Positions 1-7,626 of a stretch of 7,626 nt of DNA are shown piece by piece (the first letter of the stretch is position 1; each line of letters opens with the position of its first letter). The notes beneath the pieces were generated by a model. It was not told the origin of the DNA. It made no database searches and saw only the letters and a program-made list of their open reading frames with translations. This DNA comes from a virus. Lineage: Duplodnaviria; Heunggongvirae; Uroviricota; Caudoviricetes. The translations under genes were made by a program, and so were the position numbers. The stretch lies in IMG/VR virus record IMGVR_UViG_2541047761_000008, positions 1-7,626 of that record. One strand, given 5' to 3'.

Positions 1-513
1 CACATCGAAAAATGTTTCGACCTGCCTGTCGGATGGCTTGATCAAGAACACCAGACAACAAACATCACAAAAAAACCTGATGTTTCAATTACTAACAAAC
101 AAATAACGTTAGTCCCTGTCATATCATGGGTACAGGCCGGAGCATGGAAAGAAGTTGGCTATTCTGAGGTTGATTTGAGCACAGCAGAAACTTATCCCTG
201 CCCTGTACCCTGTGGCGAAATGACTTATATCTTGCGGGTGATTGGTGATTCAATGATTGATGAGTACCGCCCGGGAGACATGATTTTTGTAGATCCTGAA
301 GTCCCTGCCTGCCACGGTGACGACGTTATTGCATTGATGCACGATACAGGCGAAACCACCTTCAAGCGATTGATAGAAGATGGAACACAGCGTTATCTCA
401 AAGCATTAAACCCAAACTGGCCTGAGCCTTACATTAAGATCAACGGTAATTGCTCTATAATTGGTACAGTAATTTTCTCAGGAAAACCAAGAAGATACAA
501 AATAAAGGCCTAA
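1..513 (+). CDS. CI/LexA-family phage repressor, C-terminal S24 peptidase (autocleavage) domain; 5'-partial, N-terminal HTH lies upstream of the window
   Basis: The reading frame is open from nt 1 to the stop at 511-513, so the track ORF start at 175 (a TTG) is an artefact. Translation carries the linker motif VPVISWVQAGAW (Ala-Gly cleavage site at nt 136-141), catalytic Ser in ILRVIGDSM (nt 250-252), Lys in TFKRLIEDG (nt 364-366) and LNPNWP, closely resembling lambda CI. Confidence 0.85.
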   Translation, partial: HIEKCFDLPVGWLDQEHQTTNITKKPDVSITNKQITLVPVISWVQAGAWKEVGYSEVDLSTAETYPCPVPCGEMTYILRVIGDSMIDEYRPGDMIFVDPEVPACHGDDVIALMHDTGETTFKRLIEDGTQRYLKALNPNWPEPYIKINGNCSIIGTVIFSGKPRRYKIKA

Positions 514-524
514 TCAATATTTAT

Positions 525-547
525 AACCTGCTTCGGCAGGTTTTTTT
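525..547 (+). terminator. Rho-independent terminator downstream of the repressor gene
   Basis: Stem AACCTGC (525-531) / GCAGGTT (536-542) with a TTCG tetraloop, running into a T7 tract (541-547), 12 nt after the repressor stop codon. Confidence 0.6.
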
Positions 548-551
548 ATAC

Positions 552-580
552 TTGACAATGTACCCTTGAGATACATAATG
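552..580 (+). promoter_or_regulatory. Sigma70-type promoter (pL-like) driving the downstream early operon
   Basis: Perfect -35 TTGACA (552-557), 16-bp spacer, -10 CATAAT (574-579); the upstream T-tract could act as a UP-like element. Predicted start around 586-588. Confidence 0.5.
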
Positions 581-585
581 TATCT
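569..585. promoter_or_regulatory. 17-bp palindromic operator-like site overlapping the -10 element
   Basis: AGATACAT-A-ATGTATCT: perfect 8-1-8 inverted repeat (569-585) covering the -10 hexamer. A possible extra half-site ATGTAC lies at 558-563. Size and placement resemble lambdoid OL operators. Confidence 0.45.
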
Positions 586-1199
586 AAAAGAAACATGCCA
601 CAGGCAAGATTAAACAAAATTTGGTTGTAACACGGCGTATGGCACATGCGTCGTTAGCGGTCTGGGGACGTTAAAGGGGACAATCCACTCCTTGCTCGGG
701 CAAACAAACCAGATAGCCGGAATGTGCAAGTCAATGAGGATGCTGATAAGACGCCTAACCAGCGTGGCGATTCGGTTTGACGCCTGGGAAGAGACCAGGG
801 TGCAACGATGAGGGCATTTATGGAACCGCGACAAAGTGTGGTGCCGTAACTGGCTAAGTGCTCTCAGCGTTGTGGTGAATGCGCAGGCTGATGCGCGAAA
901 GACATTGCAGCTATTGCGGAAAAGAGCTGTTCGGCGGGGCAATTAAACGCCCGTGAGAGTCTGAAATAACCGCAAGCCGGAGATCAGCACCGGTCACCAC
1001 AACAGCCACTGCTTTGGCGGTACCAGTTTGTACACTTGCTTCCGGCTGGTACCGCTCTTTTTACAAAACAGAGAAGAGCATCACCGGACGACGGGCTCAT
1101 AACCCAATCCATCCGGGCGGCTGTCACCGCAGGTGTTCTTCTCTGTTTTGTGGAGAAACCAACCGACCTTGCAGGGTCGGTATGATGAGGAGCAGCAAA

Positions 1200-1562
1200 A
1201 TGGCTAGCGTACGCAGTACTGATGTGCAGGTATTTATCGTAGAACTGGACGGCGGCGTATTTGAAACCAAACTCGGCGCAGTTCTCAGTGAAGTCGCTTC
1301 CGGTGTGATGAACACGAAAAACAAAGGTAAAGTCTCGGTCAATCTGGACATCGAACCGTTTGATGAGAACCGTGTGAAAATCAAACACAAACTCTCATAT
1401 GTTCGCCCGACTAACCGCGGGAAAATTTCCGAAGAAGACACCACCGAAACGCCGATGTATGTCAATCGAGGTGGTCGCCTGACTATTCTGCAGGAAGACC
1501 AGGGACAATTACTGACTCTTGCCGGTGAACCTGACGGAAAACTCCGCGCAGCAGGTCATTAA
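1200..1562 (+). CDS. yfdP: YfdP-like prophage protein (120 aa), function unknown
   Basis: ATG at 1200 is preceded by a strong SD GAGGAG (1187-1192, 7-nt spacing). The track ORF from 1014 adds a Cys/Arg-rich, non-protein-like N-terminal extension, so it is rejected. Length 120 aa and position directly upstream of yfdQ match the KplE1/CPS-53 yfdP gene as recalled. Confidence 0.7.
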   Translation: MASVRSTDVQVFIVELDGGVFETKLGAVLSEVASGVMNTKNKGKVSVNLDIEPFDENRVKIKHKLSYVRPTNRGKISEEDTTETPMYVNRGGRLTILQEDQGQLLTLAGEPDGKLRAAGH

Positions 1563-1627
1563 TATCGTTCTTAATTAACTGATTATTTATCTCATCACTG
1601 AATATCTTAATATAGTGAGGACTTATT

Positions 1628-2452
1628 ATGTCTCAGAACTTAGACGCAACCGCAATTAATCAAATCCATGCCCTTATTTCTGCTCAGGGTGTTAATGAAA
1701 TTATCAGTAAGATTGGTGCCGACGCAGTGGCATTACCTGAAAATTTCCGCATTCATGATCTGGAAAAATTTAATTTAAATCGCTTCCGTTTCCGTGGTGC
1801 GCTTTCCACTGCCAACATCGATGACTTTACCCGTTATTCTAAAGATCTTGCAGATGAAGGCACCCGCTGCTTTATCGATGCCGATAATATGCGTGCCGTC
1901 AGTGTGCTTAACCTGGGTACTATTGGTGAACCAGGTCACGCAGATAACACCGCCACACTCAAACTGAAAAAGACAGCACCGTTCTCTGCTCTGTTGTCTG
2001 TTAACGGCGAGCGTAACTCCCAGAAGTCACTGGCAGAATGGATTGAAGACTGGGCCGACTATCTTGTGGGCTTTGATGCTAATGGTGACGCTATTAAGGC
2101 AACAAAAGCGGCTGCGGCGGTCCGTAAAATCACGATTGAAGCAAACCAGACCGCTGATTTTGAAGATAATGACTTCAGCGGCAAACGCTCCCTGATGGAG
2201 TCTGTCGAAGCGAAGACCAAAGATATTATGCCAGTGGCATTTGAATTTAAATGCGTTCCGTTTGAAGGCCTGAAAGAACGTCCGTTTAAATTACGCCTCA
2301 GCATTATCACTGGCGATCGTCCTGTACTGGTTCTGCGCATTATTCAGCTGGAAGCAGTGCAGGAAGAAATGGCTAACGAATTTCGTGATCTGCTTGTTGA
2401 GAAATTCAAGGACAGCAAAGTAGAAACCTTTATTGGTACTTTTACCGCCTGA
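1628..2452 (+). CDS. yfdQ: YfdQ-like protein (DUF2303 family), 274 aa
   Basis: ATG at 1628 with SD GAGG (1617-1620). N-terminus [20 protein letters not shown] and the 274-aa length match recalled E. coli YfdQ; gene order yfdP-yfdQ-yfdR-yfdS is conserved. Confidence 0.88.
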
Positions 2453-2464
2453 TTTCATTACTGC

Positions 2465-2486
2465 AAATGCCCCTGCGGGGGCATTT
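2465..2486 (+). terminator. Stem-loop between yfdQ and yfdR; weak candidate intrinsic terminator or attenuator
   Basis: AAATGCCCC (2465-2473) / TGCG loop / GGGGCATTT (2478-2486), a 9-bp stem. The U-rich stretch is short (AUUUAU), so termination would be partial at best. Confidence 0.3.
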
Positions 2487-2579
2487 ATGGAAACGTAATT
2501 GACTCAATAATCGCCGGATGGTGAGGGCTTTCTTTTACCAGAATTCAGCGCGGTGCAGCGCATATACGTGGAGAACAAA

Positions 2580-3116
2580 ATGTCATTTATTAAAACTTTT
2601 TCCGGGAAGCATTTTTATTATGACAGGATAAATAAAGACGACATCGTGATTAACGATATCGCGGTTTCCCTTTCAAATATCTGTCGCTTTGCAGGACATC
2701 TTTCACACTTCTACAGTGTCGCCCAGCATGCGGTGCTTTGCAGCCAGCTGGTGCCGCAGGAATTTGCTTTTGAAGCGTTAATGCATGATGCAACAGAAGC
2801 GTATTGCCAGGATATTCCCGCTCCACTGAAACGCCTTCTTCCTGACTATAAACGGATGGAAGAAAAAATAGACGCCGTAATCCGTGAGAAATACGGGTTA
2901 CCCCCGGTTATGAGCACGCCTGTGAAATATGCCGATCTCATCATGCTGGCAACCGAACGCCGCGATCTCGGGCTTGATGATGGCTCTTTCTGGCCAGTAC
3001 TGGAAGGTATCCCGGCAACAGAAATGTTCAAAGTTATTCCACTGGCTCCGAGCCATGCCTACGGGATGTTTATGGAACGTTTTAACGAGTTATCGGAGTT
3101 ACGCAAATGCGCATGA
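2580..3116 (+). CDS. yfdR: HD-domain 5'-deoxynucleotidase YfdR (178 aa)
   Basis: ATG at 2580 with SD GGAG (2570-2573) gives 178 aa starting MSFIKTFSGKHFYYD, matching recalled K-12 YfdR; the track start at 2553 is an upstream GTG. HD-domain motif H...HD is present (SVAQHAV ... ALMHDATEAY). Confidence 0.9.
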   Translation: MSFIKTFSGKHFYYDRINKDDIVINDIAVSLSNICRFAGHLSHFYSVAQHAVLCSQLVPQEFAFEALMHDATEAYCQDIPAPLKRLLPDYKRMEEKIDAVIREKYGLPPVMSTPVKYADLIMLATERRDLGLDDGSFWPVLEGIPATEMFKVIPLAPSHAYGMFMERFNELSELRKCA

Positions 3117-3469
3117 ATGTTTTCGAAATGGAAGGGTTTCTTCGCGGGAAATGTGTACCACGAGATCTGAAAGTGAATGAAACAAATGCTGAGTACCTAG
3201 TACGTAAATTCGATGCGCTTGAAGCTAAATGTGCGGCACTGGAAAACAAAATAATACCAGTGTCAGCTGAACTGCCGCCAGCAAATGAAAGTGTTCTGTT
3301 ATTTGATGCTAACGGAGAAGGCTGGCTAATTGGCTGGCGTTCTCTCTGGTACACCTGGGGACAAAAAGAAACCGGAGAATGGCTGTGGACATTTCAGGTC
3401 GGGGACCTTGAAAACGTCAATATCACTCACTGGGCAGTAATGCCGAAAGCACCGAAGAATAAAAAATGA
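3107..3469 (+). CDS. yfdS: YfdS-like protein with C-terminal DUF551-type domain (120 aa)
   Basis: Start overlaps the yfdR stop by 10 nt. The 120-aa length matches recalled YfdS. C-terminus GWLIGWRS...ITHWAVMPKAP is typical of DUF551. Confidence 0.85.
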   Translation: MRMNVFEMEGFLRGKCVPRDLKVNETNAEYLVRKFDALEAKCAALENKIIPVSAELPPANESVLLFDANGEGWLIGWRSLWYTWGQKETGEWLWTFQVGDLENVNITHWAVMPKAPKNKK

Positions 3470-3669
3470 GCGTGATAAAAACTCATACAGGAATTGTTAT
3501 CACCCGAGACGGTCCGCAGGTAAAAAAACTGCACCAGACAAAGCGGATGTGGGTCGTCGGAAAAAACGAGTTTTACCACAAAGAAACCGGACGCCGCCAC
3601 TTTGCAGAAAATACTCGCCGCCGACTGCTGATCGATACCATCAAGCCTATCGAGGTGAAGCATGTTTAA
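3466..3669 (+). CDS. Hypothetical small protein (67 aa), basic
   Basis: ATG at 3466 overlaps the yfdS stop (ATGA coupling). Same strand and coupled to flanking genes. No family recognised. Confidence 0.55.
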   Translation: MSVIKTHTGIVITRDGPQVKKLHQTKRMWVVGKNEFYHKETGRRHFAENTRRRLLIDTIKPIEVKHV

Positions 3670-3901
3670 ACAGAACGAAAAATCTATCGCTCAAATTGCT
3701 GAGTATATCCCGCGTGCGTGCCGGGGTATGCAGTTGCAGGAAGCCAAAGCACGCCTGGAGAAAAAAATTGCGCTCTATATCGATGACGGCTGTGATGCTG
3801 CCGTTCTTAACGCGGCGTTCGCGCCAGCTCTTAACAGTCATACGCGAAAGTCTTTTTTTTCGTGCATCGCAGCGCAGATCCGTAAAGGAGGCAACCAGTG
3901 A
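3662..3901 (+). CDS. Hypothetical small protein (79 aa)
   Basis: ATG at 3662 with SD GAGGTG 6 nt upstream, overlapping the end of the previous ORF by 8 nt. Contains a T8 homopolymer (3853-3860) in frame. No family recognised. Confidence 0.6.
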   Translation: MFKQNEKSIAQIAEYIPRACRGMQLQEAKARLEKKIALYIDDGCDAAVLNAAFAPALNSHTRKSFFSCIAAQIRKGGNQ

Positions 3902-4497
3902 GCAACATTAACTATCAGGTACTGCGTGAAAAGGCAGAGAAAGCAACTAAAGGAAGCTACATCGTAGGGCATACATCTGTTAACCAACACGGCAATTTAA
4001 CAGGAGTTTTTGTTTGTCAAAAATGGAAAGGAGAACCCGGTGGCGTAATTGCAGAATGTCACGTTAACTGCCTGGTTGAAACAGATGCTCAGGCTTATGC
4101 AAACGCTGAATTCATAGCAGAGGCTAACCCGGCTACCGTGCTGGCACTGCTGGATGAACAGGAAAGAAACCAGCAATACATCAAACGCCGCGACCAGGAG
4201 AACGAGGATATTGCGCTAACGGTAGGGAAGCTGCGCGTTGAGCTTGAGGAGACAAAATCAAAACTCAACGAGCAGCGCGAGTATTACGAGGGAGTTATCT
4301 CTGATGGGTGCAAGCGTATTGCTGAACTGGAAGCGCGGGAAGTTCAATTACCGACTCGCTACGACCTTCGATATGGACACCCCATAAATGCAGATGAGCG
4401 ACAAGTCATGATACCTAAAGAAAATGGCAGTTGGCTTTACCTGATTGACCTAGAACACGCATTACGCGTCGCTGACATTCGCATCAAAGGAGAGTGA
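3898..4497 (+). CDS. Ead/Ea22-like family protein (199 aa)
   Basis: GTG start at 3898 with a perfect SD AGGAGG (3886-3891), overlapping the previous stop (GTGA). Motifs MSNINYQVLREKAEKATKG and ANPATVLALLDE resemble recalled Ead/Ea22-like prophage proteins. The central segment is heptad/charge-rich (LRVELEETKSKLNEQREYYE), a likely coiled coil. Confidence 0.85.
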   Translation: MSNINYQVLREKAEKATKGSYIVGHTSVNQHGNLTGVFVCQKWKGEPGGVIAECHVNCLVETDAQAYANAEFIAEANPATVLALLDEQERNQQYIKRRDQENEDIALTVGKLRVELEETKSKLNEQREYYEGVISDGCKRIAELEAREVQLPTRYDLRYGHPINADERQVMIPKENGSWLYLIDLEHALRVADIRIKGE

Positions 4498-4498
4498 T

Positions 4499-4763
4499 AT
4501 GGCAACTTTGACAAAAAAAGAACAAGCATGGTTGAGCGAATTACAGGACGTTCTTGATCGCTGCCCATCACCGAAAAAAAATTGGTTTTTACACCATTGG
4601 CGATAAAAGCATTTACCTGTATGACCTGCGCCGCATGGATGAAATCATGGAGGCTCTTGATAATCGTTCGTCAATGGATTGGTGTGTTGCTGTTCATGAT
4701 ATGAATGCCGGATTTGATGAAAAGATTTTATTCCCCTCATCAGTTGAAAGTACAGCAGGATAA
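4499..4763 (+). CDS. Hypothetical small protein, apparently frameshifted in an A8 tract (two frames, 4499-4606 and 4554-4763; about 87 aa if A7)
   Basis: ATG at 4499 with SD AAGGAGAG and a 1-nt gap after the Ead stop opens a frame that stops at 4604-4606. The downstream frame to 4763 has no ATG before the tract, only a TTG at 4554. The two frames join across A8 (4574-4581) if one A is removed. Confidence 0.5.
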
Positions 4764-4773
4764 GGACTAACAC

Positions 4774-5535
4774 ATGACCACTATTACCAAAGAGCGACTG
4801 CTGACAATCAGGCAGTGGCGCGAAACATACGGACCTGGTAGCAACGTTGTACTGCCAGCAGAAGAAGCGGAAGAACTGGCACGAATTGCTCTGGCATCGC
4901 TGGAAGCAGAGCCGATAGGTTTCCGTTGCAGGCGCAATGATAACCTTGGTGATTGGAGTTACGTATATCATCGAGAGCCAGATGATTTTGAGCGCAAACA
5001 TTTAGTGATAGAGGGCATTTACGCCGCCCCTCCAGCACCGGTAGTGCCTGAAGAAGCAACTCCGGAAAACGTAGAAATGCTCTCTGGCTATGTTTCAACG
5101 TACAAATTAACCGATAGCGAGCGCGATATTGCTGCCGAAATATGGAACGCCTGCCGCGCCGCCATGCTTCAGTCCGGAAACTTTCGGGAAAACAAGAATT
5201 CGTCAACCAATAATTTTCGGGAAATCGCGGAAACGTCAACCAACTATCCGGCAATTCCTAGTGAGGTGTTGTCCGCAATCCTGAAGGTTGCCAGGATTCG
5301 TGCCGATTTCGATGATTTTGACGGTGACAGGCGAGGTATCGGTGATTGTCTGGATGAGGCTGAGCAAGAGCTTATCGTTACCATTAACAAATATGCCAGT
5401 CAGTTGGCAGCAGAACCTATAGCGCCTAATGACGTTCGAGAGCAGACAGCCATTCCACAAGTTCCGGTAACTCCGGATGGTTGGATAAGCTGTAGTGAGC
5501 GAATGCCGGACGACAGGCAGGAGGTGAATCAATGA
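4774..5535 (+). CDS. Hypothetical prophage protein (253 aa) ending in the start of a DUF551-like motif; internal 11-residue tandem repeat
   Basis: ATG at 4774 with an AAGGA-type SD. The C-terminal WISCSERMPDDRQEV parallels YfdS residues IPVSAELPPANESVLLF but stops where the DUF551 body should continue. Contains the tandem repeat NFRENKNSSTN / NFREIAETSTN. Confidence 0.8.
   Translation: MTTITKERLLTIRQWRETYGPGSNVVLPAEEAEELARIALASLEAEPIGFRCRRNDNLGDWSYVYHREPDDFERKHLVIEGIYAAPPAPVVPEEATPENVEMLSGYVSTYKLTDSERDIAAEIWNACRAAMLQSGNFRENKNSSTNNFREIAETSTNYPAIPSEVLSAILKVARIRADFDDFDGDRRGIGDCLDEAEQELIVTINKYASQLAAEPIAPNDVREQTAIPQVPVTPDGWISCSERMPDDRQEVNQ
5179..5243 (+). repeat. Imperfect 33-bp tandem direct repeat (2 copies), in frame within the 253-aa CDS
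   Basis: Copy 1 AACTTTCGGGAAAACAAGAATTCGTCAACCAA (5179-5210) and copy 2 TAATTTTCGGGAAATCGCGGAAACGTCAACCAA (5211-5243), about 75% identical. They encode the protein-level repeat NFRE...STN twice. Confidence 0.5.
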
Positions 5536-5615
5536 GCTGGCCTGATGCAATCGTAACTCTGGGGGTGGTCTTCGCAGCAGCGTTTGTTGTGTTCTCGATT
5601 TGTCGATGGGGATAA
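5532..5615 (+). CDS. Candidate 27-aa hydrophobic (single-TM-like) small peptide
   Basis: ATG at 5532 overlaps the previous stop (ATGA) and sits 8 nt after a perfect SD AGGAGG (5518-5523). Translation MSWPDAIVTLGVVFAAAFVVFSICRWG has an 18-residue hydrophobic core. Below the track length cutoff; not verified by homology. Confidence 0.4.
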   Translation: MSWPDAIVTLGVVFAAAFVVFSICRWG

Positions 5616-5619
5616 CCAC

Positions 5620-5862
5620 ATGTTCGCTTTGATTCAACGCGGTCAGATATACACGGACAGAGCTGGATACCCCGTGGTGATTACTCGCATCACTGAGCAC
5701 TCAGTGTTCTTTCGACGGATGGACGGACGATCCGGGCGGGTACGCATTGGTGAGTTAAACTGCCTGTTCGAACATATTGACCACCAGGAGTACCGCAAAA
5801 TTCTCGCGGACACTGAGCAGGAAAAGCACCTGAAAAAATTACGAGCCATAAAAAGGAAGTAA
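5620..5862 (+). CDS. DUF4222-like small prophage protein (80 aa from ATG 5620; the track uses a TTG at 5584)
   Basis: ATG at 5620 with a GGGGA SD-like motif (5607-5611). Sequence MFALIQRGQIYTDRAGYPVVITRITEHSVFFRRMDGRSGRVRIGELNCLFEHI resembles recalled DUF4222 proteins found near prophage xis/int. Confidence 0.7.
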   Translation: MFALIQRGQIYTDRAGYPVVITRITEHSVFFRRMDGRSGRVRIGELNCLFEHIDHQEYRKILADTEQEKHLKKLRAIKRK

Positions 5863-5865
5863 AGA

Positions 5866-6012
5866 ATGAATAAAGCATTTGAACGATGGGTCCACCAGCG
5901 TTACGGCAATCGCTATGACCTGACGCGAGATGTTGACGGCTTCTACTGTCGTGAAGTTGTGAAGCGAATGTTTGAAGTGTGGTGCCACTGCCGTGGGCTG
6001 AGTGTTGTGTGA
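5866..6012 (+). CDS. Candidate 48-aa Cys/His-containing small protein
   Basis: ATG at 5866 with SD AAGGAAG (5853-5859, 6-nt spacing), starting 3 nt after the upstream stop and ending 8 nt before xis. Translation MNKAFERWVHQRYGNRYDLTRDVDGFYCREVVKRMFEVWCHCRGLSVV. Absent from the track because it is under 60 aa. Confidence 0.45.
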   Translation: MNKAFERWVHQRYGNRYDLTRDVDGFYCREVVKRMFEVWCHCRGLSVV

Positions 6013-6020
6013 GGTAATAC

Positions 6021-6257
6021 ATGGGCAATGTGATTCAACTGGCTCCCAATGAATGGGTTTGTGAAAGCGTTCTTATCGCAATTACCGGGCTCAAACCAGG
6101 CACAATTCTTCGGGCCCGGAAAGAATGCTGGATGGTTGGAAGAGAGTATATTCACGTATCACCAGACGGTAATCCAAAGCCTTCCAGTGAATGTATGTAT
6201 AACAGAAAAGCAATAGATGCCTGGGTCGCCTCAATGAAAAACAAACAACCCAGGTGA
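6021..6257 (+). CDS. xis: Excisionase (Xis-like small DNA-binding protein, 78 aa)
   Basis: ATG at 6021 with SD GAGGT (6011-6015). Small basic protein directly upstream of and co-directional with the integrase; recalled similarity to putative-excisionase family proteins (LIAITGLKPGTILRARKECW). Confidence 0.72.
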   Translation: MGNVIQLAPNEWVCESVLIAITGLKPGTILRARKECWMVGREYIHVSPDGNPKPSSECMYNRKAIDAWVASMKNKQPR

Positions 6258-6312
6258 TTTAATATCATGAAATATGTAAGCTCGTATCGCTCTTGGGCGT
6301 CTGGAGGTATCG

Positions 6313-7626
6313 ATGGATAAAGTCAAATATCCAACAGGCGTCGAAAACCACGGCGGCACATTACGCATCTGGTTTAATTTTAAAGGTAAACGTGTCAGGG
6401 AAAATCTTGGTGTCCCTGACACTGCCAAGAACAGGAAGATCGCCGGGGAACTGCGGACATCAGTATGTTTTGCCATCCGCACAGGAAGCTTTGATTATGC
6501 TGCACAGTTCCCTGACTCCCCCAACCTTCAGGCTTTTGGGGTAAGTAAAAAAGAAATTACGGTGAAGGAACTTGAAGAAAAGTGGCTGGATCTGAAACGA
6601 ATGGAAATCTCTGCAAATGCATTCAATCGCTATGAATCCGTTGCAAGAACGATGGTTCCGAAAATTGGAGGCAGCAGACTGGTGTCATCGGTAACTAAAG
6701 AGGAATTGCTGTATATCAGGAAAGATTTGCTGACCGGGTATCAGCATTCAACGAAAAACAAAGCAGCAGCAAAAGGACGGAGCGTCGTTACTGTAAATTA
6801 TTACATGACGACAATCGCTGGAATGTTTCAGTTTGCTGCAGATCACGGTTACTTAGAAGCAAATCCCTTCCAGGGAATTAAGCCTCTTAAAAGAGCCAGG
6901 GCAGAGCCAGATCCGCTAACTCGTGACGAATTTATTCGCCTGATAGATGCTTGCCGACATCAGCAGACGAAAAACCTGTGGTCATTGGCTGTGTACACAG
7001 GAATGCGTCACGGTGAACTGGTCTCCCTGGCCTGGGAAGATATCGATCTGAAAGCAGGAACTATTACTATCAGGCGCAATTATACGAAACTCGGTGAGTT
7101 CACTCTACCTAAAACTGAAGCAAGTACAAACAGGGTTGTGCATCTTATCCAGCCCGCTATCAGTGTCCTGAAAAATCAGGCTGAAATGACAAGACTGGGT
7201 AAGCAGCACCACATCAAGGTTCAACTACGTGAATATGGGCGTTCAGTGAATCATGAATGTACTTTCGTATTTAACCCCCAGGAGGTTAGAAAAAGCAAAC
7301 AGGTCGGTTTTATCTACAAGGTAGATTCTATTGGCGACTCATGGGAAACAGCCATTAAGCGTGCGGGCATCAGGCACCGGAAAGCATACCAGTCACGACA
7401 CACTTATGCGTGCTGGTCATTATCTGCCGGAGCAAACCCAAGCTTCATTGCCAGCCAGATGGGCCATGCAAGTGCCCAGATGGTGTTCAATGTATACGGA
7501 GCATGGATGACTGACAGTAATGCAGAACAGATCGCAATGCTGAATCAGAAGCTGGCAGATTATGTCCCAATGATGTCCCATGGTCACCAAAGTGACACAA
7601 GAGACTTATTAAAATCAGTAGGTTAG
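6313..7626 (+). CDS. int: Site-specific tyrosine recombinase / phage integrase with N-terminal arm-binding domain (DUF3596 type), 437 aa
   Basis: ATG at 6313 with SD GGAGGT (6303-6308). N-terminus YPTGVENHGGTLRIWFNFKGKRVRENLG resembles e14/Sf6-type integrases. Catalytic region has GMRHGELVSLAWEDIDL, HRKAYQSRHTYACW and MGHASAQMVFNVYGAW (R, H-x-x-R and Tyr nucleophile). Stop TAG at 7624-7626. Confidence 0.95.
   Translation: MDKVKYPTGVENHGGTLRIWFNFKGKRVRENLGVPDTAKNRKIAGELRTSVCFAIRTGSFDYAAQFPDSPNLQAFGVSKKEITVKELEEKWLDLKRMEISANAFNRYESVARTMVPKIGGSRLVSSVTKEELLYIRKDLLTGYQHSTKNKAAAKGRSVVTVNYYMTTIAGMFQFAADHGYLEANPFQGIKPLKRARAEPDPLTRDEFIRLIDACRHQQTKNLWSLAVYTGMRHGELVSLAWEDIDLKAGTITIRRNYTKLGEFTLPKTEASTNRVVHLIQPAISVLKNQAEMTRLGKQHHIKVQLREYGRSVNHECTFVFNPQEVRKSKQVGFIYKVDSIGDSWETAIKRAGIRHRKAYQSRHTYACWSLSAGANPSFIASQMGHASAQMVFNVYGAWMTDSNAEQIAMLNQKLADYVPMMSHGHQSDTRDLLKSVG

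Follow-up and report, generated by a model that had tools for sequence, protein, structure and literature searches.

The yfdPQRS genes and their early operon

The stretch analysed here, 7,626 nt of viral DNA (positions 1 to 7,626 of IMG/VR record IMGVR_UViG_2541047761_000008; hereafter the window), carries four consecutive genes, yfdP, yfdQ, yfdR and yfdS, which are also present in the cryptic prophage CPS-53 (KplE1) of E. coli K-12. They lie between a phage repressor gene and the excisionase and integrase genes, and all genes of the window are on the + strand. The four genes are:

1200-1562, + strand: yfdP, 120 aa, directly 5' of yfdQ
1628-2452, + strand: yfdQ, 274 aa, DUF2303
2580-3116, + strand: yfdR, 178 aa from an internal ATG (the mechanical open reading frame, ORF, begins with GTG at 2553)
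3107-3469, + strand: yfdS, 120 aa, with a coiled-coil N-terminus and a DUF551-like C-terminus, overlapping yfdR by 10 nt

Window positions 1178-3454 aligned with yfdP-yfdS of CPS-53 in strain MG1655 as a single gapless 2278-bp piece (blastn, 96.4% DNA identity), with gene order and spacing unchanged across the four genes, and the encoded proteins were 93-98% identical to their K-12 counterparts (YfdP 112/120, YfdQ 269/274, YfdR 174/178, YfdS 115/120). The similarity broke off abruptly at both ends, 22 bp 5' of the yfdP start codon and 15 bp short of the yfdS stop codon, which leaves the last four YfdS residues different; judged by the alignment, these ends, at 1178 and 3454, are typical mosaic borders. 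Profile searches likewise placed the proteins in their families. YfdQ matched Pfam DUF2303 (PF10065) over its full length (1.7e-90, residues 7-272 of 274) and PHROG_210 (5.6e-119), while YfdP, assigned by its K-12 homology and its place immediately 5' of yfdQ, matched PHROG_204 (2.5e-48), and its listed homologues all bear PF27127 (in precomputed annotation). YfdR matched PHROG_318 (deoxyribonucleoside 5' monophosphate phosphatase; 9e-110) and YfdS matched PHROG_583 (1.9e-81). YfdS also aligned, through residues 50-117, with the whole 68-position DUF551 profile (PF04448), at 21.0 bits against a Pfam gathering cut-off of 22. For YfdP and YfdS, searches of PDB sequences returned chance matches only.

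These results bore out the original prediction, which had named the four genes and given the lengths of their products as 120/274/178/120 aa: by sequence, they are orthologues of K-12 yfdP, yfdQ, yfdR and yfdS. The finding is real but ordinary. The cassette was correctly recognised, and it is already annotated and published, so that in itself it adds little: pipelines already name the genes (for the closest E. coli prophages, RefSeq uses the names yfdP, yfdQ and yfdR), the K-12 study appeared in 2016 and the spread of the genes among lambdoid phages was noted in 2025. Those closest prophages, sited next to a DUF72 gene, yecN and cmoA, were 97.5% identical over window positions 863-7625. This was also the best single match among the complete E. 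coli genomes of our collection, none of which held the whole window, and the repressor-to-leader part matched other relatives. The window thus appears to be a new mosaic of known segments.

CPS-53 differs in being decayed: a truncated yfdO stands upstream in place of the repressor and promoter region, yfdT, ypdJ and torI follow downstream, and IntS lies at argW. In the window, by contrast, the repressor/operator/leader region is intact, the genes downstream are others, and the integrase and excisionase are unrelated. The comparison with K-12 found no yfdT in the window, which nevertheless carries the minimal set (Q, R and S) for the DnaA/initiation phenotype published for the K-12 genes. The features that surround the cassette are:

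1-513, + strand: repressor gene, 3' part (LexA/cI-like, N-terminus outside the window; Pfam Peptidase_S24, 1.4e-26)
525-542, + strand: terminator-like hairpin and T-run at the end of the repressor transcript (consensus scan)
552-579, + strand: early-left (PL-like) sigma-70 promoter, TTGACA-16 nt-CATAAT (11/12 consensus matches)
558-576 and 578-596, no strand: two adjacent 19-bp operator-like palindromes, ATGTA-N9-TACAT, over the spacer, the -10 element and the expected transcription start
2465-2486, + strand: 9-bp GC-rich hairpin, terminator-like in sequence, AAATGCCCC-TGCG-GGGGCATTT, between yfdQ and yfdR
3466-6012, + strand: variable downstream genes, namely orf67, orf79, an Ea22-like gene (3898-4497), orf69, the gene of a DUF551 protein (4774-5535), that of a DUF4222 protein, and orf48
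6021-6257, + strand: excisionase, DUF1233 family (Pfam, 9.5e-33)
6313-7626, + strand: tyrosine integrase, Arm-DNA-bind_2 and Phage_integrase (Pfam)

The repressor fragment was identical at 169/170 residues to an E. coli B1-56 'LexA family protein' of the YmfK-like kind, and in phage Ayreon a promoter is annotated at the position homologous to 552-579. Relatives of the same immunity (L002, L005) carried the 19-bp palindrome between cI and cro, and it was not found in relatives with other repressors. The S24 repressor, the promoter and the overlapping palindromes shared with same-immunity relatives together support the earlier claim that the operon is repressor-controlled, and from the S24 domain its induction by the SOS response would be expected.

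Nine further ORFs follow yfdS, the last two being the excisionase and integrase genes. From yfdR onward, most neighbouring genes share 4-10 nt or leave gaps of 3-56 nt, consistent with translational coupling. The gaps are 65 nt between yfdP and yfdQ and 127 nt between yfdQ and yfdR, and a terminator is annotated in Ayreon at the place homologous to 2465-2486. The cassette had been described as adjacent to xis-int, which is right as to the shared strand and the short gaps and overlaps and wrong as to distance, since seven ORFs (~2.5 kb) stand between yfdS and xis. The accompanying view, that the integration module is unlike that of K-12, was upheld: Int was 24% identical to IntS over 113 aa, and the DUF1233 excisionase showed no similarity to TorI. 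In relatives, the 3' end of int abuts the host DUF72 gene, beside yecN-cmoA.

Between 514 and 1013 the + strand holds no ORF of at least 40 aa, and the N-like first gene that marks a lambda-type PL operon with N/nut antitermination was not found; yfdP is the first real gene, with ~690 bp free of any credible gene after the repressor and a gene-free leader of 620 nt from promoter to yfdP. Genome papers report SfII, SfIV, SfV and LLS as being without N. The region forms the start of the early-left operon in a lambdoid prophage of SfV/mEp460/cdtI type that has no N gene, and it shares with SfV, mEp460, cdtI, Ayreon, ST64B and LLS a cI-like repressor, a long gene-free leader, yfdP, yfdQ and yfdR (and yfdS), and the lack of N. 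The phage mEp460 was 99% identical over window positions 613-1199, and its YfdQ 98.9% identical. Immunity differs within this group (mEp460, L001 and L004 carry other repressors than the window), downstream genes and integrases are shuffled, and ST64B has a different leader, without the structured RNA described below as RNA 1.

Among the downstream genes, 4774-5535 encodes the operon's second DUF551-related protein besides YfdS (253 aa). The DUF551 match was limited to profile positions 1-16, at the protein's extreme C-terminus; as the 253-aa length is also annotated in relatives, the protein is probably short by nature and not truncated.

The yfdP-yfdQ pair and the spread of yfdR and yfdS

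We compared the surroundings of yfdQ at two distances, using 80 IMG/VR loci with a YfdQ at least 98% identical to that of the window as close loci and annotated phage records as distant contexts. Searches for related loci gave 99%-identical loci only when made with the enterobacterial YfdQ alignment, and no more than 4 loci when made with the Xanthomonas protein, which is why the distant contexts come from the phage records. The close loci all held YfdP and YfdQ (80 each), 78 held YfdR and 53 held YfdS, with variable genes downstream. In the annotated phage collection, YfdQ occurred in 184 records, YfdP in 175 and YfdR in 330. By taxon, YfdQ and YfdP were recorded almost equally often: 53/52 for Escherichia, 32/27 for Vibrio, 26/26 for Stx2a phages, 15/15 for Xanthomonas and 5/5 for Pseudomonas. 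YfdR records came mostly from phages of Bacillus, Caulobacter, Rhizobium, Vibrio, Pseudomonas and Stenotrophomonas, and the Stx2a-converting phages were not among the listed YfdR groups. In five distant phages (ST64B, PA2, Vibrio 34E29.1, Pseudomonas pAN and Xanthomonas CP2), a YfdP homologue stood immediately 5' of yfdQ every time (5/5; hmmsearch E 2e-69 to 2e-25, with an hhalign probability of 99.2% for the CP2 homologue). YfdR was present in two of them, adjacent in ST64B and three genes off in pAN, and YfdS in none.

Taken together, the co-occurrence of P and Q and the distribution of R and S indicate, at the level of sequence, that yfdP-yfdQ is an obligate pair reaching phages of Vibrio, Pseudomonas and Xanthomonas, that yfdR is an independently distributed HD enzyme gene that joined the pair in enterobacterial lambdoids, and that yfdS is a local addition in enterobacterial phages. 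The proposal of a portable module was therefore right about portability, though this is not new, as a 2025 survey already found the yfdR/yfdQ/yfdP cluster to be common in the early-left operons of lambdoid phages (PMC12315714). It was wrong in treating the four genes as one evolutionary unit: synteny across the distant phages held for the P-Q order and broke down for R and S. The unit to study is the pair, which keeps its order from enterobacterial to Xanthomonas phages and is usually found beside SSB, exonuclease or recombinase genes.

YfdQ belongs to a large family (1811 clusters), whose members were 264-288 aa long and free of fusions among the best 150 matches listed. A search of PDB sequences matched it to entry 9o7m, 'YfdQ Protein', with 36 chains (3e-43, and 1.7e-58 with a profile), the sequence of which is 98.8% identical over 246 tblastn-aligned residues to a protein of the CP2-like Xanthomonas phage MET23-P3. 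We found no paper for 9o7m, and the entry, released after April 2026, is missing from the Foldseek library, whose entries run to 8 April 2026. For two other proteins of this Xanthomonas phage, the YfdP homologue and the DUF1351 neighbour, PDB has no entry. A YfdQ homologue thus forms, or crystallises as, a large multi-copy assembly. The earlier statement that no role is assigned to YfdQ still holds, even with this homologue structure deposited. In a structure search, the predicted YfdQ model matched no known fold, and in particular no DNA-metabolism protein. The protein is acidic (pI 5.1), which weakens an early guess that it forms a filament on DNA. The predicted YfdP structure combines a long helix with a three-stranded sheet and a tail of low confidence. 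This tail (SEEDTTETPMYVNRGGKLTILQEDQGQL) is the most conserved part of the protein though predicted to be disordered, suggesting a segment that folds on a partner.

One conceivable reading is that YfdQ is a virion-associated protein delivered with the DNA. The 36 copies in 9o7m are what would be expected of a large symmetric assembly, and the DUF2303 protein gp10 was found by mass spectrometry in virions of the Bcep22-like phage JC1 (PMC9144972). This is a single proteomic report, however, whose own authors called the observation unexpected, and yfdQ lies in an early operon, far from the structural genes, in every genome examined. We consider a virion role very unlikely.

The genes next to the pair suggest something else. 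An SSB, exonuclease, RecT/Erf or DnaQ-like gene often stands nearby (Xanthomonas CP2 and MET23-P3, Vibrio 34E29.1, E. coli PA2), the pair is kept without yfdR in 3/5 of the distant phages, and the hairpin at 2465-2486 separates yfdQ from yfdR. YfdP-YfdQ could, on these grounds, be an accessory of phage recombination or replication and not of host takeover, its linkage to yfdR in enterobacteria being incidental mosaicism. Against this, the 2025 survey saw the cluster whether or not a canonical recombination module was there and considered a recombinase role unlikely (PMC12315714), the K-12 initiation phenotype needs yfdQ on genetic evidence (PMC4776307), and the YfdQ model resembles no DNA-metabolism protein. 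An exclusively accessory role is possible, though we regard it as rather less probable than the reading developed below.

YfdR, DnaA and the proposed role of the cassette

YfdR has the metal-binding residues H50, H69-D70 and D119 of the H...HD...D motif, together with H40 and E73. The motif is shared with YfbR and other HD 5'-deoxynucleotidases and with the solved HD protein Atu1052 (PDB 2gz4), to which YfdR aligned over residues 19-175 (9e-14); a weak Pfam match to HD_3 was also obtained. Its scores fell below the cut-offs of the YfbR family, both in Pfam (PF12917, 24.4 versus 25.9 bits) and in NCBIfam (NF003009, 19.9 versus 122), and the nucleotide affinities cited for YfdR lie far below those of YfbR (Zimmerman et al. 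2008, as quoted in PMC4776307). With its HD residues present and its YfbR scores under the cut-offs, YfdR is, by sequence, an HD phosphohydrolase and a YfbR relative rather than an equivalog. Of the predicted 'HD-domain 5'-deoxynucleotidase', then, the HD domain stood, confirmed by the motif residues and the homology to 2gz4, and as a YfbR-like 5'-deoxynucleotidase the protein scored below the curated thresholds.

What is known of these genes in the cell comes from K-12. Noguchi and Katayama (2016; PMC4776307) reported that multicopy yfdQ and yfdR, with either yfdS or yfdT, suppress the over-initiation of hda-185 and other mutants and inhibit initiation at oriC, and that YfdR binds domain I of DnaA in a Phe46-dependent manner and moderately inhibits the binding of DiaA and of DnaB to DnaA. 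The original prediction cited this work correctly, both for the binding of DnaA by YfdR and for the inhibition of initiation by the yfd genes in excess. YfdR resembles in this respect lambda P and B. subtilis SirA, small initiator-binding proteins that block host initiation, and SirA uses the residue equivalent to DnaA Phe46 (PMC4776307, discussion). It differs from both in lacking sequence kinship with them, in its HD fold, and in needing YfdQ plus YfdS or YfdT in vivo. The YfdR of the window, identical to the K-12 protein at 174/178 residues and accompanied by Q and S, would be expected to bind DnaA and inhibit initiation likewise.

Our preferred reading, to which we give a probability of about 70%, is that the window holds an early-left operon of the N-less kind whose cassette restrains host initiation and aids phage DNA metabolism. 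In this reading, SOS-induced cleavage of the repressor would lead to early expression of the cassette, and transcripts from 552-579 would cross the 620-nt structured leader before reaching yfdP. Read-through into yfdP and past the yfdQ-yfdR hairpin would require an antitermination device other than N. YfdR, with YfdQ and YfdS, would then restrain DnaA-dependent initiation on the host chromosome, and the dNMP pool may be shifted in favour of the phage. YfdP and YfdQ would form a large assembly, the YfdP tail probably docking on YfdQ, that could act in phage DNA replication or recombination, as the neighbouring SSB, exonuclease and RecT/Erf genes suggest. The 'host takeover' or 'nucleotide pool' role first proposed for the cassette is an extrapolation from overexpression in K-12.

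Several points weigh against this reading. Nothing in the window shows that the prophage is inducible. In K-12, a yfdQRST deletion left initiation unaffected, yfdP was dispensable for the initiation phenotype, and the authors themselves considered that the overexpression effect, obtained from multicopy genes, is possibly an artefact (PMC4776307). In the same study, pull-downs revealed no strong binding of YfdQ, YfdS or YfdT to either YfdR or DnaA (PMC4776307). The pI of YfdQ disfavours direct binding to DNA, the YfdP-YfdQ complex is a predicted one, and the YfbR scores of YfdR, like its cited affinities, are low.

In a second view, the main activity of YfdR is that of a nucleotide phosphohydrolase, which would reshape the dNMP/dNTP pool or destroy a nucleotide signal of host defence, with DnaA binding as a side effect of overexpression. 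YfdR-type proteins are found in 330 phage records, mostly of lytic or large phages of unrelated hosts without YfdP or YfdQ, and so wide a spread argues for a generic enzymatic role. The T5 Dmp-type enzymes, which PHROGs group with YfdR, are thought to reshape the dNMP/dNTP pool. The PHROG_318 match, the intact HD residues and the RefSeq name of K-12 YfdR, 5'-deoxynucleotidase, fit this as well. The low cited affinities do not, and neither do the specific, Phe46-dependent nature of the DnaA binding and the inhibition of initiation by extracts in vitro (PMC4776307). PADLOC defence models, moreover, matched none of the eight operon proteins searched. A mainly enzymatic YfdR seems to us a possible but somewhat unlikely account.

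A further explanation, along lines proposed for the cryptic CPS-53, is that the genes benefit the lysogen, as stress-tolerance genes expressed at a low level from the prophage. Deletions of yfdQ and yfdS raise sensitivity to H2O2, and that of yfdQ also sensitivity to MMS (as quoted in PMC4776307), and the genes have survived in the decayed K-12 prophage. In the window, however, they stand behind a repressed early promoter and terminator-like hairpins, and they are equally conserved in the functional phages mEp460, SfV, ST64B and the CP2-like Xanthomonas phages, so that we hold this explanation to be improbable. Returning to restraint of host initiation, intact repressor-controlled copies such as those of mEp460 and SfV offer a natural setting for asking whether the K-12 DnaA effect is relevant to phage growth.

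Structured RNAs of the leader

The less ordinary part of the region is the leader, which holds two RNAs, at 630-812 and 869-1003, with no counterpart in Rfam or in the literature that could be searched. Its features are:

630-812, + strand: RNA 1 (~180 nt), helices P1, P2, P4 and P5 and a possible loop pseudoknot (covariance model, 142.8 bits)
869-1003, + strand: RNA 2, closed by a stem (869-878 paired with 994-1003) and containing two invariant hairpins and a central domain that varies
1017-1061, + strand: hairpin GCGGTACCAG ... CTGGTACCGC followed by TCTTTTT, an inverted repeat and putative terminator
1063-1151, + strand: long hairpin with 25-nt arms directly 5' of yfdP, common to phage ST64B

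The leader is richer in G+C than the flanking windows (53% versus 41-50%), it folds with z-scores of -5.9 (+ strand) and -3.8 (- strand), and pieces of it recur in many unrelated phages (blastn). RNA 1 contains an invariant 17-nt block, TAGCCGGAATGTGCAAG, that more than 120 IMG/VR contigs share (43 clusters when grouped at 95% identity). In an alignment of 30 sequences, 98.9% of the cells in its five helices were paired, compared with 24-46% in slid controls, and nine pairs showed compensatory double changes (62 cells), a figure reached by 0/500 shuffles. The frequency of G-U pairs indicates that the RNA is encoded on the + strand. With the covariance model, RNA 1 was detected in 35/80 of the close yfdQ loci, always 0.8-1 kb 5' of yfdQ and on the same strand, and was not detected in K-12, HK022, ST64B or PA2.

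RNA 2 was found in more than 120 viral contigs, including those of the siphovirus swi2 (genus Swiduovirus) and a Taipeivirus (Ackermannviridae). Its closing stem, GTTGTGGTGA / TCACCACAAC, to which the covariation result applies, showed compensatory double changes in 7/8 pairs. The loops of its two invariant hairpins, GCUGA and UCAGC, are complementary and could form a kissing interaction, and the central domain varies from ~25 to 110 nt. Neither RNA matches an Rfam family (no match anywhere in the window up to E = 1); in other carriers, Rfam matches were confined to flanking tRNAs and sub-threshold tmRNA-like hits. A literature search by sequence returned no paper containing RNA 1 or RNA 2.

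As this phage group lacks N, an RNA-based role in antitermination is an attractive hypothesis, and the authors of the LLS genome paper proposed RNA-mediated early antitermination for the N-less group. Were the RNAs true regulators, they would matter more than the cassette, this phage group having no N protein. In its full form, the hypothesis would make yfdPQRS the cargo of an N-independent early operon that depends on new structured RNAs: RNA 1, RNA 2 or both would be the RNA-based antitermination device long suspected in N-less lambdoid phages (SfV, mEp460 and LLS among them), and RNA polymerase would pass the hairpins at 1017-1061 and 2465-2486 into yfdP-int. The closest analogue is the put RNA of HK022, also a structured RNA just 3' of the early promoter of an N-less lambdoid phage, with terminators following. 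We found no homology to it, either as blastn similarity or with the RNA 1 covariance model in the HK022 immunity region. RNA 1 also differs in its size (~180 nt versus ~70 nt for put), in beginning ~45 nt after the expected transcription start, and in occurring free-standing and beside tRNA genes in P1-like and epsilon15-like phages.

This last property points in another direction. A same-strand tRNA gene lies directly adjacent in 46/126 instances of RNA 1, a tRNA-Arg gene downstream in epsilon15-like phages and a tRNA gene with a CAT anticodon upstream in P1-like phages, and RNA 2 of swi2 lies 170 nt upstream of tRNA-Met. Some copies of RNA 1 seem, by visual judgement of the alignment, to have a promoter and terminator of their own. 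RNA 1 and RNA 2 may thus be stable RNAs of phage tRNA operons that were captured in the leader, much as the T4 tRNA cluster holds unexplained small stable RNAs. The copies linked to tRNA genes, and those that appear free-standing, suggest a stable processed RNA at least as readily as antitermination, with which such an origin is compatible. We accordingly see the strong form of the antitermination hypothesis as unlikely, if worth stating.

Three kinds of candidate gene in the leader were rejected. The - strand ORFs at 610-942 and 984-1388 overlap the covarying RNA or yfdP, and the 39-aa ORF of phage Ayreon inside RNA 1 overlaps the covarying RNA; none of these is annotated by RefSeq in close relatives. 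tRNA genes, suspected from blastn matches beside phage tRNAs, were not found by ARAGORN.

The ST64B leader (L332:1757-2571, between the cI gene sb38 and the yfdP homologue sb37) is 815 nt long, gene-free and strongly folded (z = -7.7). A closing stem like that of RNA 2, TTGTGGTG ... CACCACAA, is present, and the last long hairpin is shared with the window; a long structured leader thus appears in another yfdP-yfdQ-yfdR lambdoid phage. Finally, between RNA 1 and RNA 2, GATGAGGGCATTT (803-815) is able to base-pair with AAGTGCTCTC (857-866), a variable insert lying between the two. At the matching position, phage swi2 has a canonical T-arm, GCGG-TTCGACT-CCGC, and weak, sub-threshold Rfam matches to permuted tmRNA, and the 803-866 segment may be a degenerate tRNA-like or tmRNA-like element.

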